DNA of 64,000 bases, taken from Lophium mytilinum. Its lineage: Eukaryota. The stretch's first letter is position 1. Each line of letters starts with the position of its first letter. The DNA lies in contig MU004187.1 of the NCBI GenBank assembly GCA_010093605.1, positions 434,001 through 498,000 of the forward strand, read 5' to 3'. Shown here one piece after another: positions 16,283 to 24,133 of the stretch. The notes beneath the pieces are model-generated. The model saw only the letters and a list, made by a program, of their open reading frames with translations, made no database searches and was not told where the DNA came from. Both the position numbers and the translations under genes were made by a program.

Positions 16283-16699
16283 TCAATTCTGCAGCACTTG
16301 CTTCTTAATATGGACCTTGAAAAAATCACAATCTCCACCATCAATGTATTCCAGCGACAATGCATCGAGGCTGTCGATTTTCCATGTCACTTGACCTAGG
16401 TCTGCGTTTTCGTCTCCTTTGAAAAAGTTGCCTTCCTCTACGACATCTGGGTGCTCCTCCTTGAAGAATGCCATGACCTTCGCATTGGCGGCCTCGATGG
16501 TTGTGAATACACCAACAGTACTGTGCTCGTGGGAGCTATACACGTATCTTTCTTCGTGCATTACGACGAACGTAGGGGGGCTGCTTGTTAGCGCATTTGC
16601 TACAAGGGCCTGCGACAGCCTGGCTTTTCTGCCAGCTACCTCGACTGCGTCTTTAAGGGATTGGGGATAGTCTCCCTGAATGTATTCGGATCTCTGCAT
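16283..16699 (-). CDS. Hypothetical protein (138 aa)
   Basis: ATG-initiated ORF with globular-looking composition and a GVFTTIEAAN strand-helix motif; I recognise no family with confidence. Confidence 0.55.
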   Translation of the reverse strand: MQRSEYIQGDYPQSLKDAVEVAGRKARLSQALVANALTSSPPTFVVMHEERYVYSSHEHSTVGVFTTIEAANAKVMAFFKEEHPDVVEEGNFFKGDENADLGQVTWKIDSLDALSLEYIDGGDCDFFKVHIKKQVLQN

Positions 16700-17952
16700 T
16701 GCGAGAATATATGTTGGGGTCGAGAGAGTCAGATATCTGCAGCGGATGGTATTTGAAAGGCTTGCAATAATCTTTTGTCTTGAACGGCGGGCACTTCGAA
16801 GAAATTGAGGTAGGTAGTTGGGTGGCAGGCGGAGAAGGAAGCGAACCTGTGGAAGGTACTTAATATACTATACCCCTCTTTGACCAAACGTGGTTGAATA
16901 ATAACGCAATTCAGCGTAGCCATGGTCGAGGCTTAGTAAATGAAGGCTCCGTTTAAAGTTTTCAAGAGAGGGTTACTGGCCTTTTCATCCTTTTGCTACT
17001 TGAACCTTTCGAGATAGAAGTCGGATACCGAAAATGAATTATTCCAGTTGTAATACGCGATTACATTCGGCACCGGTCCCCATCCAAAGAAGTGAGGTTT
17101 CTTCACGACACCATCGTGAGGTTTTTTAAAGACTTCAATGACTGTGGCATTGGCAGTGTCGACGCGACGTATCCACAGACAGCCTCGATCTTAGCGCTGT
17201 CATCTTCCCTCCTATAGTGGGATTACGTCTCATGCATTAATGGACACTGAAAGGACTGCGGATGACATACACGTCACGAAACAAGTTCGTCGCCAATAGG
17301 CGGCCCTGCCGGCTGCCTCACATGCTTAGAATATTTGACGTATCGGAAATAGTATCTTGTGACGGTTGGATTACTGCTAGGTTGGCGTCGGGAGCAGATT
17401 TCCATAGTACGTGGGATCGATATAGAAGATGGCTTTGGGAGCTGTTGTACATGTTGGAGATGATGCAGAGTGTCGAGGTTGAAAGCTGACCTCATAGATC
17501 ATTACATTTTTAGCCTTCATTCTTTATTCTGTACGATCATGTATGATTGTGGATTTGAGAAGATGCACGCGCTTGTAGATTTCGTTCGATTCTAGGCAAT
17601 TGATTGAAGTCTATGCCATATGGTAGTAGTAAGACAGTGGCAAATAAGATTACCATACCCCAATCTCCATACGATCTATTTTCGTTCTTGCTCAGAGAAC
17701 GGAGCCGCTCCCGCTCCGACTGAGTGCTCTCTGGAATCAATTGATGATCAAGTTTGAGTTGCAGGTCACCGAGATGTAAAACTTGATGATTCCAGCTGGA
17801 CGCGGTGCTCATAGTCTACGGCAATGGGCGCTTTCAGATTTGTTACAGGGCTATTAAGATATCTCTGGATATTGAACCCGCTCCTAAGCTAGCTTGTCTG
17901 GCCTGCCATGATTCTCATGGTCCAGCTCCGTTCGAGATTCAATACCATATTC

Positions 17953-20900
17953 TCAAGCTCCAAAGTGAATGAAAGGTGCCCATGACAATGGGTTCTTGTT
18001 CCGTCTGTCCCGCCTCAGCTGCATCAATGCCTCATGCAAAGCATACGCCACTACGTCATGTGGAGAGTCATAGTCCTTCGAGTCCTGAATATTGCGGAAA
18101 AGAAACTGATAAAACAGACCGGCCAGGGGAGCAGCTGCAGAGTCCTTTGCCTCCCACATTGTGCCTATGACATGGGAAAAGCCTGCATGCAAGAACGTAC
18201 TCGTCATGTGGATCATCTCATCCGCAAGCTTGTAGTTCGAGTTCTCTGCCGTAGAACACGCCGACAGATACGCAATTTGAGCTCCCTTGTTTTTCATCAA
18301 CAGCAGATCTCTGACAGCCAACGGCTCTGCTGTAGCTGCGCTCGCACGTCCGAGCAACAGTCCACTCGAGGAAGGATTTTTAGCTTTGGAAATACCGTGG
18401 CAGATGAAGTGGACGTTGGTGCTGATTGGGAGCTCGGATAGCGCTTCCGCCTTTGTCGGGTTCTCCATTACTCTGAATCTATGTCCAAAGCAATTCTTGA
18501 TGATTTCCTCTTCTTCTTTTTTAGCGCCCTTCAGTGGATTTTCTCCCGGAGTTGTTGGCATAGAAACAAGGAACAGGTCGCTCTTCCCGACGCCGATCAA
18601 TGGAGGGGGAGCCTGTCGAGCGGTGTGTAGCGCCGCAAAAGACGGCGTGTAGGAGGACACCACATAGTCGAATACATTCTCGGTCGTGTGAGCACCTTCT
18701 CCTGCCGCATGGAAGGGTAGTCGGCTGATAACCCCGCAAGCTGACCACCAAAGTCGTGGGAGACGCTGATTTTCATTTTTGACGAGCAAGTTCAATGTTG
18801 CTAGGATAGGCTTCACAGCGGAGACCCACAGCCACTTGAGTATGCTCTTTAGCTTTTCGTTGTTCGTACTGACTTCAAGGGGAGCACACTTGGAAAGCCT
18901 GTTCTTGCCATACAAAGTGTTAAGATGTGACTGTATATCGGTAGGGTGTAAGTCTGGAAGATCTAATTGATGCACTCCAGTGTTTGTCGTAAGAATGGCA
19001 TGTCCGTGGTTCGTCGTTGCAATCAAGAGGACAATGGGATATCTGCCCATGGGTTTAAATAGGCCGTCAACAAGGGGAGGTGGGTTGGATGGCTGATCCA
19101 AGGACAGAGTTCGAAATTCTCGCTCCAATTCTGTAAGTTTCTGGAGAACATCGCGTCTTTTGTCAAAAACGTCGTGTCCTCCAACTTCCAGGCTAAGTGG
19201 AAGTTCCCGTGACTCAATTGCTGCAGTTAATCGGTCATCTGTGCACAATTCTTGCTCTAGGGAGCGATATCGATCGAGCGCGTCAGGAGCCAGCTTTTCC
19301 AAATTCGACAAATTCGAGATCGTATGAAGTCCGGTACTTGCTAGAAGGCCTCGACTGGCTTCAACTAATTTCAGGGAGTTGAGTGCAGCCTCATCTGGTG
19401 AAATACCCATTACTTTTCCTGCTTCAAGTGCTGTGAAGCCAGCTTTAGTGGCGAGACCCGGAATCTGGCTTAAAAGCCACTCTTGATCTTTGCGAGAGTA
19501 GGATCGAGGGACCAAGTCCGTCAGGAGATCAATCACTTTCTGAAAGGTTTGATATGCTTCCTGCCACCACTGACATAGTGTCAAGCATCCAGCAAGTGAC
19601 GTCCCAGCTTCGATTCGGTATCGAGGCAGTGCACCCGCCGATTCCAGAACCTGGCGGCTACATTTCCATTGAAACCGGACGTCCTCATCAGCGGGGAGAC
19701 CACCAATTTCAATTCTGACTTCGAAAGACTTATACAGCGACTGAGATATTGCGCGGAGTTGACGGGGAGCCTCTGGGTGATCTGGGCTTAGATTGCCGAC
19801 GGCCTTTCTACAAAGAGCCAAGGCTCTTTCATAGTCATTCAAATCTCTGGCTCTGACAAACCTTCGGATAAGAAAGTCGTACATACCCAATTGGAAGTGC
19901 TCCTCCAAATGATGACCTTTGGGCATGAGTGCTAGAGACTTTTCGCAAATTTCTAATCCCTCATTAAGACGATTATCGTTAGCTTCCTCCTGCCACTGCA
20001 TCAGCAACCCTTCGCCCAAAGTTGAACCAAACACCAGTCGGTCCAAGTCTTCTTCGGGTATGCTACTATATGCTTTCCTAGCATTCGACACTCCGTTTAC
20101 TAAATCGTGCTCGTATCCATCTCCGTGAGATTGTGTCAGACGGTTTCGTTCGAATCTTCGCAGCTGCCAACAGGCCAACGAGTTCCAAAAAGAGGGTTTG
20201 GATGGAGAGCAATCTTCAAGGAGTAATACAGCCCATCGGCACGCATCGATAGCCTGATTTAAGTCATCAGAAGCCTGCGTCACGAGAAACTTGATCCCCA
20301 ATATCGAGCTATAAGCGTTAAGAATAGGCAAAAGTTGGCTTGGTGCAAGCATTGCTTTGTCTTTGTATTCCTCAAAGATCCAGAATGCCTGTCGAACGTG
20401 ATCGAGGCCCTCGGTGGCAAAGCTCAAATCTCCGGTTTGCTTGAGGGCTACACACAGCGATGAGGAGAAGTCTGTGAGCAAATCAATCCTCAATTTCGGG
20501 TGTATTCCTTGGGAGGCTAGATCCCGCAGAGAAGCCCTCTGGCACGCGATAGTCTCGGTCAACTCTGACATGTCAATATGACTTCCTGTGGTAAGAAGAC
20601 CACCTCTGCGGAACGAAGCCAAGCTCATCTGTGCTACTAGCTTGCCTGGCCCGTCGAGGTAGCGTTCCGCTTCGCGCAATAAGTCCATGACATCCTGCCG
20701 GCGATTTGTGGTGCCTTCCACGTTTTGCATGGCTAATTTACATTTCGCTAGTCGAAGAAGCAATTGGCCTTTTACTTCATTTGATTCGATCTCGGTGCTA
20801 AGAGACGTTTCGGCAATTGCAGCAGCAAGATATAAATCATCTTCGTGAGATCCATCTACAGATCCAAGATAATATCGTAGCAGATGCAATTCGCAAAGCC

Positions 20901-22167
20901 GGTCTTTGAGCATTGGCGATTCGCTGTGATCTTCAGGCGTCATCTCTTGTGCCGCTTGAACCATGGAGATAGCCTCTAAGATCAACGGGAGCGAATTAGT
21001 AGTGCGAGCTGCCAGGCACGTTGCGTCGACTGCAGATCTAACCATTCCAGGCATCATACGGTAAGCCTTCAGGCTTTGAGAAAGCCTTGCGTCTTCTTGA
21101 AGATTTGGGAAGCGAACGAGGATCCTGTGACATGTGCGCCGGTACTCGAGAAGATCGTTCAGGTTACCTGTTCGGTTGAACTTGTCGTAGAGCTTCCCCA
21201 TTAGTATGCCCCTTTGTCGTATCTCAAGGTCTCCGATCTGTTTTTTGGAATCGACGGCTAGGGTCTGATGTCTCAGAAAGTCGATGATTACGTCTTCAAG
21301 CTCGGCAGTGTCGGGTTCACGTCCTCCTGCCCGGATGTTCATAGCATATGCCATCATAACAGCAACTGATTGGTGGTCCAAGCCATTGATGAGAGTGCTT
21401 GGGAATGCGAACGTGTGTTCCCCTTCCCCCGTCTGGATGTTTGTCATCGTGAGAACGGCTGATTGCTCATTCAGGCTAGTGGAGGGAGTGCTGGGAATTC
21501 CGGTTACGAGACCCAGGCGGCCATGGTTGTTCGCGATCCTTTCATCCAAATCCACAAAAGCGGTCATCCAGTCACCCTTTACGTTTCTAAGTTGGGCTTC
21601 AAGAACTGTGCTGCCTTCGATAAGTCGAACATCCCGTGCGGAAAGTTGAAAGTTTCCATTGCATGGTACCCATCTGAATCGACCATTTTCGTTCGACAAG
21701 GCAGAAGCAAGGTCTAGACGCGCCAGATTATATTCTTCACCAGTAACTTGGCATTCTGCGAGCAGATATTGCCCATTGTCGAGATATATGCAACGGGAAG
21801 TGTTGGAGAAATTTCCAAGCACAGGGTTTGGCGGCGCTCGATGCGCGCCGGAATCAGAGACAGAAGCTTGAGATGTTTTGCTTGCGTCAATCAGTTGCAA
21901 CTCCTTCGGCGACGGACTCGTGTCGTGGGTGTCGATCTCGTTGATTTTGCGATACAGTTCGCGATGGTGATTCTTTAGGAAAAGGCCCCAAATCTCTTGG
22001 AAGTCACCAATGGCTTTCGATTCGATATTGCCATCTGATTCTTCAGCTGCCAGGAGCTCAGATGGGGGAAGATCGATGGGATCGGTCCTTGGCCTTGTTC
22101 GAGAACTGGGCTCTCCTACGCAGGGGAAGCCTTCCCCATCTTTTGGGCTTTGATATGCTGGCCCCAT
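17953..22167 (-). CDS. CHAT-family (caspase-like, clan CD) protease with an N-terminal CVNH lectin domain and a central TPR-like helical region (1404 aa, intronless)
   Basis: The C-terminus has WLWVSAVKPIL, PRLWW...LPFHAAG, VVSSYTPS, catalytic VHFICHG and AYLSACSTA, GFSHVIGTMW and WAPFIHFG. Residues about 118-219 show the two-fold CVNH repeat. DDLNQAI- and NDYERAL-type helical repeats lie between. Confidence 0.92.
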   Translation of the reverse strand: MGPAYQSPKDGEGFPCVGEPSSRTRPRTDPIDLPPSELLAAEESDGNIESKAIGDFQEIWGLFLKNHHRELYRKINEIDTHDTSPSPKELQLIDASKTSQASVSDSGAHRAPPNPVLGNFSNTSRCIYLDNGQYLLAECQVTGEEYNLARLDLASALSNENGRFRWVPCNGNFQLSARDVRLIEGSTVLEAQLRNVKGDWMTAFVDLDERIANNHGRLGLVTGIPSTPSTSLNEQSAVLTMTNIQTGEGEHTFAFPSTLINGLDHQSVAVMMAYAMNIRAGGREPDTAELEDVIIDFLRHQTLAVDSKKQIGDLEIRQRGILMGKLYDKFNRTGNLNDLLEYRRTCHRILVRFPNLQEDARLSQSLKAYRMMPGMVRSAVDATCLAARTTNSLPLILEAISMVQAAQEMTPEDHSESPMLKDRLCELHLLRYYLGSVDGSHEDDLYLAAAIAETSLSTEIESNEVKGQLLLRLAKCKLAMQNVEGTTNRRQDVMDLLREAERYLDGPGKLVAQMSLASFRRGGLLTTGSHIDMSELTETIACQRASLRDLASQGIHPKLRIDLLTDFSSSLCVALKQTGDLSFATEGLDHVRQAFWIFEEYKDKAMLAPSQLLPILNAYSSILGIKFLVTQASDDLNQAIDACRWAVLLLEDCSPSKPSFWNSLACWQLRRFERNRLTQSHGDGYEHDLVNGVSNARKAYSSIPEEDLDRLVFGSTLGEGLLMQWQEEANDNRLNEGLEICEKSLALMPKGHHLEEHFQLGMYDFLIRRFVRARDLNDYERALALCRKAVGNLSPDHPEAPRQLRAISQSLYKSFEVRIEIGGLPADEDVRFQWKCSRQVLESAGALPRYRIEAGTSLAGCLTLCQWWQEAYQTFQKVIDLLTDLVPRSYSRKDQEWLLSQIPGLATKAGFTALEAGKVMGISPDEAALNSLKLVEASRGLLASTGLHTISNLSNLEKLAPDALDRYRSLEQELCTDDRLTAAIESRELPLSLEVGGHDVFDKRRDVLQKLTELEREFRTLSLDQPSNPPPLVDGLFKPMGRYPIVLLIATTNHGHAILTTNTGVHQLDLPDLHPTDIQSHLNTLYGKNRLSKCAPLEVSTNNEKLKSILKWLWVSAVKPILATLNLLVKNENQRLPRLWWSACGVISRLPFHAAGEGAHTTENVFDYVVSSYTPSFAALHTARQAPPPLIGVGKSDLFLVSMPTTPGENPLKGAKKEEEEIIKNCFGHRFRVMENPTKAEALSELPISTNVHFICHGISKAKNPSSSGLLLGRASAATAEPLAVRDLLLMKNKGAQIAYLSACSTAENSNYKLADEMIHMTSTFLHAGFSHVIGTMWEAKDSAAAPLAGLFYQFLFRNIQDSKDYDSPHDVVAYALHEALMQLRRDRRNKNPLSWAPFIHFGA

Positions 22168-22611
22168 GCTCGCAATATCTCTCGATTATAGCAGTGCTAG
22201 CTTGTAGGAGATGGTGATATGGGGCAAAGTGCTCAAGGCAGAAAGAGTGAAAACGTTGATGAAGATGTTCTTTCACGTCCTTTACTTCTGTGGAAATGCC
22301 GACGAAACAGGCTGTAGGATGAGGCTCTGCGTATTTGGGGTTTTCACTTGGCTGGAACACGACAACATCAGGCAGCCACGTCAGTCAGCGACGCCACCAA
22401 TCTCTCGACGTTACACAGCGTCGAAGGAAAAGCCATTAGTAGATAAGAAGACGAAGACGCGTCATCTCCACACTGGTCGAACTCTGGATAACCTGATCTC
22501 CATGTTCTGAGCCGTGAAGAATAACGAACCTACTCATCGTCACTCATCCATCGTTTACGACCTCCTATACGTCTACTGTCACTGAGACCGTACTCGTTTA
22601 GTCAAGACATC

Positions 22612-23442
22612 ATGCGCCCGAGGCTTATTTTGAGAGAATATCCACTTGAACTTAAGGAAGTGCCAATAGGTTCCTTCGTCGTTGATCTTGCGTACCCTCA
22701 TCAAGATGCAATGAAAGGAGATAAGGAAGAGATCGATCTGAACAAGGACTGTACCAAATCTGTATCCGAGGGCCCGGCTCATCAACTCGAAGCTTCAGCA
22801 ACGACAACAGTCTGGGCCTCCTTTCAAAAGATCCTGGGCCTTTCAGTCTCTGCTGCTAGCAGCAGTTCGTCGAGAATTGTAGCCGATCAAACGGTACTCT
22901 ACGAGTTGCGCAATCCTAAAGCACGACTCACGGACCTGGTAGACGATGAAAAAGTGCGGCAGTGGATCCAAAGTGAGATCGAGGGTGGAGAAGACATATA
23001 CCTGATCACCGGTTTTCAGACCGCCACGAACCAACGAGTCCAGCATAGTGACAATCAAAAGCTATCCGGGTCACAAAGCACCAACATCCCAATTGGTAAC
23101 AACGCACTCCAGGCGGGGCAGGGTGTGAGCTATGAGCAACTTGCCAGCAAACAGGATTCATACAAAGCCCCCGAAGAAAGAGTTTTTGCAATTCGAGCCC
23201 GCCGAGTCATCGTCCGAGAGATCAAAGCCATTGAAGTTGATCAATCAACTGGATACGATTACAAGTTGGAAAGGAATGTCCGTTTCCGTATGCTTTCCGA
23301 CAATCGAACAAGCGGAGATGACGGAGTGTCGGAGCAAATTGTTGAAGTGGTGTTGGAAGATGAAGACACTGATTTCGGTGCGTCATTGAGCGAGGTTATA
23401 TGCGTAGGACCAAATGAGTTTGTGTATTGTGTTCCTGAGTGA
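22612..23442 (+). CDS. Fungal gasdermin-like pore-forming protein (RCD-1/HET-Q1-like, 276 aa, intronless)
   Basis: Motifs IGSFVVDLAYPHQD, YELRNP...VRQWI, IYLITG and APEERVFAIRARRV, two Ser/Thr/Gly-rich hairpin-like segments and a short acidic C-tail fit the family. It lies head-to-head with a protease gene. Confidence 0.82.
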   Translation: MRPRLILREYPLELKEVPIGSFVVDLAYPHQDAMKGDKEEIDLNKDCTKSVSEGPAHQLEASATTTVWASFQKILGLSVSAASSSSSRIVADQTVLYELRNPKARLTDLVDDEKVRQWIQSEIEGGEDIYLITGFQTATNQRVQHSDNQKLSGSQSTNIPIGNNALQAGQGVSYEQLASKQDSYKAPEERVFAIRARRVIVREIKAIEVDQSTGYDYKLERNVRFRMLSDNRTSGDDGVSEQIVEVVLEDEDTDFGASLSEVICVGPNEFVYCVPE

Positions 23443-24133
23443 TGAATTGAATCGGAGCAGCGGAAGGGCCATGGGCTGGGAGGGGGCTGTTAGGTTCTAG
23501 TTTGAGTTTCGGCCTCAATTCGTAACTTACTTGCAATTATCAAAGAAGCGGAAATCCTTACGCTTCCGAGATCTTCTCAACTTGATGAAGTGGAATGAAG
23601 TCTGAAACAGCAATCTCAGAATAGCATCTTGAATATGTGATTTCTACCACGTGACCTCGTACATCCAGGTTCCTTGGCGACAAACTCGAACCTCGGATCT
23701 CGACGCGTCCTTGAGGGCGGGATACCTAGCGCGTTCGGAATCCGAACAATCACCAACTGTTTCGTAATTTCCCCATCTTTTCACAGCTACACCACTGCCA
23801 GGTCTTCATATTCACCGCAGATGGACAAAACTCCTCAGGCTGATGGCTCTTAGCACTCCGCGTCCCGACGTTCCTCGGTGATAGACCCGCGACTCGTGGC
23901 TAAGTCATTTCAATGGGCAACCGACGTCCTCATTCCCTCTACGAACGAAACAGATGCCAACGACGCAACCCGAGCACGAGATTTATGCCAATCCTGTCAG
24001 CTCTGACGATGAGCAAGCGCCCACCGACATCGACACCTCCCGCGCCCCTCGTTGCCAGCTGCCCGAGAGCAGACCGGACGAGTATATCCTTAGAGAGTCC
24101 AAAAATACACCACACTAGGAGATAAACCTTAAG

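Follow-up and report, generated by a model that had tools for sequence, protein, structure and literature searches.

What is a lectin-type domain doing near the front of a protease whose gene lies beside a gasdermin gene? The question is raised by a 64,000-nucleotide (nt) stretch of Lophium mytilinum DNA (GenBank assembly GCA_010093605.1, contig MU004187.1, positions 434,001 to 498,000 of the forward strand; the whole stretch is called the window below, and positions are given within it). Here a protein of 1404 amino acids (aa), P0001, carries a cyanovirin-N homologue (CVNH) domain, a TPR-like repeat region and a C-terminal CHAT protease domain, and its gene is divided from that of a 276-aa gasdermin-like protein, P0019, by 444 bp. 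The pair is best read, with a probability of roughly 60%, as a death module of the HET-Q2-like protease/HET-Q1-like gasdermin kind to which a CVNH recognition part has been added. The kind has been described, and this very locus, CVNH annotation included, stands in a published table; it is a catalogued HET-Q2-like/gasdermin member with a singleton lectin add-on. Papers are cited by PMC number. The features concerned are the following.

17953..22167, minus strand: intron-less gene of P0001, the CVNH-TPR-CHAT protein, 1404 aa (open reading frame list and translation)
21817..22167, minus strand: leader of 117 residues, of low complexity (P 13, S 13, E 10, D 9; from composition)
21511..21816, minus strand: CVNH lectin-type domain, residues 118-219, two repeats of about 50 residues (Pfam PF08881)
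21208..21510, minus strand: segment from residue 220 to about 320, a linker or no known family (no Pfam match, no relative)
18844..21207, minus strand: helical TPR-like solenoid, residues ~321-1108 (BLASTP and TPR profile matches)
17959..18843, minus strand: CHAT caspase-like protease domain, residues 1109-1403 (Pfam PF12770)
18397..18399, minus strand: codon of His1257 (CHG motif), the putative catalytic histidine, invariant in 7 of 7 sequences of alignment A3
18256..18258, minus strand: codon of Cys1304 (LSAC motif), the putative catalytic cysteine, likewise invariant in 7 of 7
22168..22611, no strand: divergent intergenic region of 444 bp between the two start codons (coordinates)
22612..23442, plus strand: fungal gasdermin-like protein P0019, 276 aa (AlphaFold2 fold, Foldseek, family profile)

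The CVNH domain was identified by a Pfam scan, in which PF08881 matched aa 120-218 over profile positions 1-101 of 102 (E 3.4e-20) and scored 73.2 bits, the curated cut-off being 24.5. Translation of the plus strand at 21511-21816 gives nonsense with a stop; the feature sits on the minus strand, in the open reading frame (ORF) 17953-22167, and its coordinates map exactly to residues 118-219 of P0001. When the region was compared by phmmer with the PDB sequences, all 18 chains matched were cyanovirin-N or CVNH lectins (best E 2.8e-19). The closest solved single-domain relatives were the structures of a Magnaporthe oryzae CVNH-LysM lectin (2l9y, 5c8o), which are about 50% identical; each half of the domain aligns separately to one half of that lectin, MoCVNH3, with 26 of 52 and 26 of 51 columns identical as counted from the alignment midlines. 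The two halves of the P0001 domain (118-168 and 169-219) were also aligned to each other and are identical in 14 of 54 columns, with a score of 26 against -18.8 +/- 9.6 for 500 shuffles (z 4.7; shuffle maximum 18). In the ESM Atlas, 27 of the 30 clusters nearest to the CVNH segment were CVNH-only proteins of ~103-112 aa, mostly from ascomycetes. Neither a signal peptide nor a membrane segment was visible, the highest 19-residue Kyte-Doolittle mean in the first 40 windows being -0.13, and P0001 is predicted to be cytosolic. A preliminary description of this DNA had claimed a CVNH domain at these coordinates, made of two homologous halves and without a signal peptide, and all of this was borne out; its placing of the domain at the N-terminus needs amending, for the domain lies near the front of the protein and is preceded by 117 residues rich in Pro, Ser, Glu and Asp. 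This leader was without a Pfam match and, judged by its composition, is probably disordered.

The domain is read in one frame with the rest of the protein. Met1 is the only methionine upstream of CVNH and so the only start codon able to include it; the first internal methionine, residue 201, falls within the domain, and residues 1-1404 are uninterrupted by any stop. An identical 1404-aa protein is present in the protein database, and P0001 equals KAF2496708.1 (Lophium mytilinum) of the published table discussed below. In a public sequencing run, X3, which is RNA by guess only, 99% of the sampled words were present. One X3 contig (5,898 nt) is collinear with positions 17849-23475 and spans both genes, which leaves the 1404-codon ORF free of joints and fits an intron-less gene with CVNH and TPR-CHAT contiguous. 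The same contig has a joint at 23475/23531, where 55 nt with CT..AC ends, equal to a minus-strand GT..AG intron, are skipped. In another contig a joint at 23799/23852 skips 52 nt with GT..AG ends on the plus strand. In the DNA run X1 neither joint occurs, so spliced RNA is contained in X3. When the CVNH, CHAT and gasdermin parts were searched against the window by tblastn, the genes themselves were returned and no second copies. The 444-bp region between the start codons is presumed to be a promoter shared by the protease and gasdermin genes.

The remainder of P0001 is a TPR-CHAT protein, as had been proposed. Pfam CHAT (PF12770) matched aa 1109-1403 (E 7.3e-35; 121.2 bits against a cut-off of 24), and TPR families gave sub-threshold Pfam matches only, such as TPR_10 at 769-799. 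P0001 was aligned with six relatives (A3, seven sequences), and the resulting profile matched designed or consensus TPR proteins (E 1e-11) and the TPRs of OGT in the PDB; TPR-CHAT and Csx29 chains were matched both by this profile and by the CHAT domain of P0001. When P0001 is aligned with 7zoq, a solved TPR-CHAT protein, His1257 and Cys1304 fall on its CHG and GAC motifs. We take CHG and AC to be the catalytic dyad, in Csx29 as well. A Walker A motif, strict or loose, was absent from P0001, and Pfam returned no nucleoside triphosphatase (NTPase) family at E values up to 1; lacking such a motif and any NACHT or NB-ARC family, P0001 is not a NOD-like receptor (NLR) sensu stricto and is a repeat-plus-protease sensor rather than an NLR.

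The nearest relatives of P0001 are 23-28% identical to it, and their BLASTP alignments start at aa 448 (P0003) and aa 601 (P0002). A scan of actinobacterial genomes yielded 602 candidate stretches, of which 516 were confirmed to encode a relative. Eighty loci were kept (L001-L080), all from actinomycetes (Streptomyces, Nonomuraea, Lentzea and others); residues ~320-1404 are 25-37% identical to these proteins in the best tblastn segment, and the longest alignments begin at query residues 320-333 (L046, L035, L062). In any collection searched, the closest relatives of the fungal TPR-CHAT part were actinobacterial. Residues 1 to ~320, comprising the leader, CVNH and the segment of about 100 residues that follows, were without a counterpart in any relative found. 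Pfam was run on 26 of the 80 loci, chosen by longest ORFs, and found CHAT in all 26, TPR families in nine and TPR-S in five. The CVNH part resembles stand-alone ascomycete CVNH proteins, and residues ~320-1404 align with actinobacterial TPR-CHAT proteins. In the simplest history, and the likely one, a CVNH gene that stood alone in an ascomycete was fused onto a TPR-CHAT gene with its nearest relatives among the actinobacteria. No match to a fungal gasdermin hidden Markov model (HMM) was found within 8 kb at any of the 80 loci; this HMM may be blind to bacterial gasdermins, so the result says little on a bacterial linkage. PADLOC assigned neither P0001 nor P0019 to a family.

That the protease is gasdermin-linked, another claim of the preliminary description, was upheld by fold and profile of the 276-aa neighbour. 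Local Pfam returned no gasdermin family for P0019 or its 81 aligned relatives, and P0019 alone gave only a weak match to RCD-1-2 among the PDB sequences (E 0.42). One stray Pfam match in this set, to Phage_TAC_17 (E 0.0046), was disregarded. An exhaustive HMMER search with P0019 found 266 representatives at E <= 0.001. From the 150 matches listed, 81 sequences that matched in a single stretch and near full length (roughly 240-320 aa) were picked for an alignment, A1, which omits fragments and multi-stretch and long fused forms. All five PDB matches of the A1 profile were fungal gasdermins, with RCD-1-1 first (E 2.1e-4), followed by RCD-1-2 and the HET-Q1 pore. AlphaFold2 (AF2) modelling of P0019 with A1 gave a mean predicted local distance difference test score (pLDDT) of 81.9 and a predicted template modelling score (pTM) of 0.76. 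In a Foldseek search of the PDB with this model, ranks 1-10 were all gasdermin pores, the RCD-1 chains at E 3.8e-9 and 6.1e-9, and Trichoplax, GSDMD, bacterial, GSDME, GSDMA3 and GSDMB structures followed RCD-1 in the list. The extended-hairpin state of the model accounts for the modest TM-scores (0.27-0.54). ESM Atlas structural neighbours of P0019 include Bact_GSDM, GSDMD and PJVK. The assignment of a gasdermin fold is nonetheless clear.

The P0019 model (m12bf2cea3439) has two very long beta hairpins, with strands 129-161 and 166-204. It is pore-like rather than autoinhibited, which accounts for pore structures being its best PDB matches. P0019 ends in an acidic tail of about 45 residues, and the acidic C-terminal stretch is conserved in A1 (E245 in 63 of 81 sequences, L248 in 59 of 81 and D250 in 55 of 80); it is likely to be the inhibitory tail. 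Among the relatives of P0019 there are longer or multi-stretch proteins, P0066 (1047 aa), P0068 (582 aa), P0092 (1922 aa, 11 matched stretches) and P0133 (487 aa), which may be fused or tandem gasdermin-domain forms. Metagenome contigs were also scanned for gasdermin relatives with P0020; 100 stretches matched and none was confirmed.

For proteins of this kind a mechanism has been described: in the HET-Q2/HET-Q1 systems, fungal gasdermins are controlled by neighbouring proteases that cut off a C-terminal piece (PMC8851545). The isolated CHAT domain of Podospora anserina Q2L-6 processes the gasdermin Q1-6, giving a barrage reaction and localized cell death; the truncated form was chosen on the grounds that full-length Q2L-6 "might be in an inactive, repressed state" (PMC8851545). 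From homology, adjacency and the intact dyad we infer that the L. mytilinum pair works in the same way, with cleavage of P0019 by a protease that its N-terminal part represses; whatever CVNH may do is conjectural. The two genes would then form a regulated-cell-death module of this known type. P0001 would be a latent, cytosolic, caspase-like CHAT protease acting through His1257 and Cys1304, probably kept inactive by its long TPR solenoid. Once activated it would most likely remove the short acidic C-terminal tail of P0019, and the trimmed P0019 would form membrane pores and bring about death of the hyphal compartment. Most likely CVNH would give the sensor part an additional surface for recognition or clustering, with a glycan or glycoprotein as ligand, and would thereby promote activation by proximity. 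Some role of the domain in ligand recognition, suggested by its intact state and by what CVNH domains are known to do, is put at even odds.

The preliminary description had also suggested that the architecture could be undescribed, and this does not hold. Fungal gasdermin genes were surveyed by Clavé et al. (2022, PNAS; PMC8851545). The pair is row 623 of their Dataset S1, and KAF2496708.1 is row 503 of Dataset S2, annotated 'CVNH>TPR' / CHAT with an N-terminal part of 1105 aa and a protease of 299 aa. The visible ~400 residues of the N-terminal cell and the whole 299-residue protease cell of that row are identical to P0001. P0019 presumably corresponds to KAF2496709.1, which the survey gives as the het-Q1 homologue of this pair. 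In the same survey, 19% of fungal gasdermin genes (353 of 1,884) adjoin a CHAT-type protease gene, and most of these proteases bear TPR, ANK or WD40 repeats in a long N-terminal part (PMC8851545). The present locus has the arrangement by which HET-Q2-like clusters are defined, a gasdermin gene lying less than 10 kb from the gene of an S8 or CHAT protease with a long additional region, here CHAT with an N-terminal region of 1,108 aa. According to the text of the paper, Dataset S2 comprises 1,601 gasdermin-linked HET-Q2-like proteases (PMC8851545); in this dataset 'Peptidase_S8' occurs 1,244 times, 'CHAT' 357 times, 'TPR' 312 times and 'cvnh' once, and there is no occurrence of LysM, Ricin, Jacalin, Concanavalin, Glyco or Galactose-bind. 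The word 'lectin' does not occur in the main text of that paper. Repeat-bearing CHAT proteases are spoken of in a review of fungal cell death from 2025, where 'lectin' appears solely in the title of a cited het-B paper. No match for CVNH together with a CHAT domain was found among the literature records listed, in which PMC10684091 names CVNH in an unrelated list. The CVNH-TPR-CHAT/gasdermin architecture is thus on record, yet never discussed. In Datasets S1-S3, L. mytilinum has three gasdermin genes, each paired with a protease (the other two Patatin-S8 and TPR-S8), and no HeLo or HELL genes are listed for this species (PMC8851545).

Several observations weigh against the preferred reading. 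The fusion is rare: P0001 was the only protein with both PF08881 and PF12770 among 18 homologues drawn from 5.8 billion clustered proteins. A search with the CVNH region for proteins of 772-2457 aa likewise returned only the query, by a method that needs shared 5-residue words and may miss distant relatives. CVNH was found in none of the 26 actinobacterial relatives scanned with Pfam and at none of the 80 loci searched by tblastn, and the single 'cvnh' entry of Dataset S2 is one among 1,601 proteins. With a singleton fusion, conservation cannot argue for function. Three of the four cyanovirin-N cysteine positions are not Cys here, according to the PDB sequence alignment, and binding-site residues vary widely across the CVNH family (PMC11952781), so that sugar specificity is unreadable from the sequence. 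A single-sequence AF2 model of aa 105-330 was uninformative (mean pLDDT 35.2). Finally, X3 is RNA by guess only, and an X3 contig that covers both genes is not proof of a single transcript.

Four other accounts of the domain were considered; readings of its role overlap and were rated independently, so that the estimates need not sum to one. The preliminary description favoured a strict glycan trigger, by which CVNH would bind free or exposed oligosaccharide (high-mannose, wall fragments or non-self) and release the CHAT protease, and gasdermin pores would follow. This seems rather unlikely. In its favour, CVNH gives an intact match over the full length, the nearest solved relatives of the domain are lectins that bind carbohydrate, P0001 is predicted to be cytosolic and a multivalent glycan could cluster the protease. 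A sensor of this sort, however, would have to ignore the free high-mannose oligosaccharides that the fungal cytosol holds of its own, and the sensing role is usually presumed to belong to the TPR part, which all relatives without CVNH share (TPR-S, with S for sensor, was found in five of 26); the fusion is, besides, a singleton. CVNH and cyanovirin-N (CV-N) proteins bind alpha-1,2-linked mannose of high-mannose glycans (PMC11952781, PMC6359319); the specificity of a given CVNH is not predictable (PMC11952781). The domain might instead be a protein-recognition or bait module that binds a self, competitor or pathogen (glyco)protein, or that mimics a stand-alone CVNH protein targeted by an antagonist, this event rather than a free glycan activating the protease; such a role we regard as distinctly doubtful. 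In the P. anserina het-B system a lectin-fold domain is joined to a HET death domain and determines the recognition specificity, directed at a PII-like protein, and a lectin fold of this sort is present in 5-10% of the HET proteins of Sordariales (PMC10890737), although that fold is of the fruit-body lectin type and not CVNH. A secreted Sclerotinia CVNH protein has been reported to target a plant peroxidase (PMC11064801), and the nearest relatives of the present domain are abundant stand-alone ascomycete CVNH proteins.

The domain could also be a recent neutral passenger of the fusion, or an aid to localisation or stability, with regulation passing wholly through TPR-CHAT as in the relatives; we consider this improbable on balance. 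The fusion is a singleton in every survey, and CVNH is flanked by the disordered leader and by a segment of ~100 residues without a family, as expected at a fusion junction. The domain is, however, not decaying: its Pfam match runs the full length at 73 bits and both repeats are intact, and it lies in frame with the sole available start codon and is covered by the X3 contig. Far less credible still is a gene-model artefact, in which a small CVNH gene and a TPR-CHAT gene had been read as one. Stand-alone CVNH genes of ~105-112 aa are the norm, but here the frame is open from residue 1 to 1404 with its first internal Met inside CVNH, the X3 contig has neither joint nor break at this place, and the public annotation gives one product of 1404 aa.

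We know of no trigger for the fungal gasdermin/protease clusters outside allorecognition. Galectins flag damaged vacuoles in animals; by analogy, CVNH could be a working cytosolic lectin, and high-mannose or wall-type glycans entering the cytosol after invasion or damage to membranes or organelles would, as multivalent ligands, cluster the protease and fire the gasdermin. This proposal is quite unlikely to be correct. If it were, a ligand class would for the first time be defined for a fungal gasdermin pathway, and there would be a portable 'lectin to protease to pore' design. The CVNH version offers a concrete handle, since its ligand class is well understood and candidate ligands are testable on one purified pair, and this practical value holds even though the locus and its layout have been published and the fusion stands alone. 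If CVNH is irrelevant, the locus is one more catalogued TPR-CHAT/gasdermin pair. The remaining novelty lies in the hypothesis of a lectin input gating a fungal gasdermin pathway, which would matter if true.

Around the pair, the X3 joint at 23475/23531 lies 34 nt beyond the gasdermin stop codon, and suggests a spliced transcript of the minus strand, lying across the 3' end of the gasdermin gene or antisense to it. The X3 contigs from ~23772, which carry the joint at 23799/23852, have a word depth of ~270-460 against 21 for the gasdermin/CHAT contig, depth not being comparable between genes; the region from 23772-24000 onward could be a small gene without a Pfam-sized ORF. Downstream of the CHAT gene, a 138-aa ORF on the minus strand (16283-16699) has a sub-threshold match to DUF7336 (E 0.018). 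The surroundings otherwise resemble an ordinary ascomycete chromosome with intron-split genes, among them MFS transporters (25.9-31 kb), an alpha-amylase (44.7-46.3 kb) and TRAPPC-Trs85 (47.5-50.3 kb), as well as a poly(A)-polymerase-head protein, Tti2, a V-ATPase proteolipid, MoeA/gephyrin, RTA1 and a fungal transcription factor. Of the 75 ORFs found in the window, 50 of at least 130 aa were scanned, and among these there was no further gene for a protease or a death domain.

Compared with known systems, P0001 shares its TPR solenoid, C-terminal CHAT domain and His/Cys dyad with the bacterial TPR-CHAT proteins and with Csx29 of the type III-E CRISPR 'Craspase'. It differs from the former by its CVNH domain, found in none of the 26 relatives scanned, and from Csx29 in that the latter is controlled by an RNA-guided Cas effector rather than by a lectin. 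MoCVNH3 (MGG_03307) of M. oryzae has CVNH halves about 50% identical to those of P0001, and neither protein has a signal peptide (PMC13027065); MoCVNH3 is a small lectin in which LysM is inserted between the CVNH repeats, whereas in P0001 the repeats are contiguous and TPR-CHAT follows. The BH protein of het-B, a cell-death protein of P. anserina in which a lectin-type fold does the recognising, resembles P0001 in this combination and differs in having a fruit-body-lectin fold, a TIR-like HET executioner and a recognised partner that appears to be a protein (PMC10890737). With the mammalian inflammasome-caspase-1-GSDMD pathway there is a likeness in the order of sensor, caspase-family protease, removal of an inhibitory C-terminal part and pores (PMC8851545), although in P0001 sensor and protease are joined in one chain without a NOD or P-loop, and the likely inhibitory tail of P0019 is short. 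Closest of kind are Q2L-6/Q1-6 of P. anserina and the HET-Q2-like/HET-Q1 clusters, in which a gasdermin gene likewise stands beside a gene for TPRs and a C-terminal CHAT domain (PMC8851545), and to which the L. mytilinum protein adds a CVNH domain and a leader of 117 residues before the TPRs.

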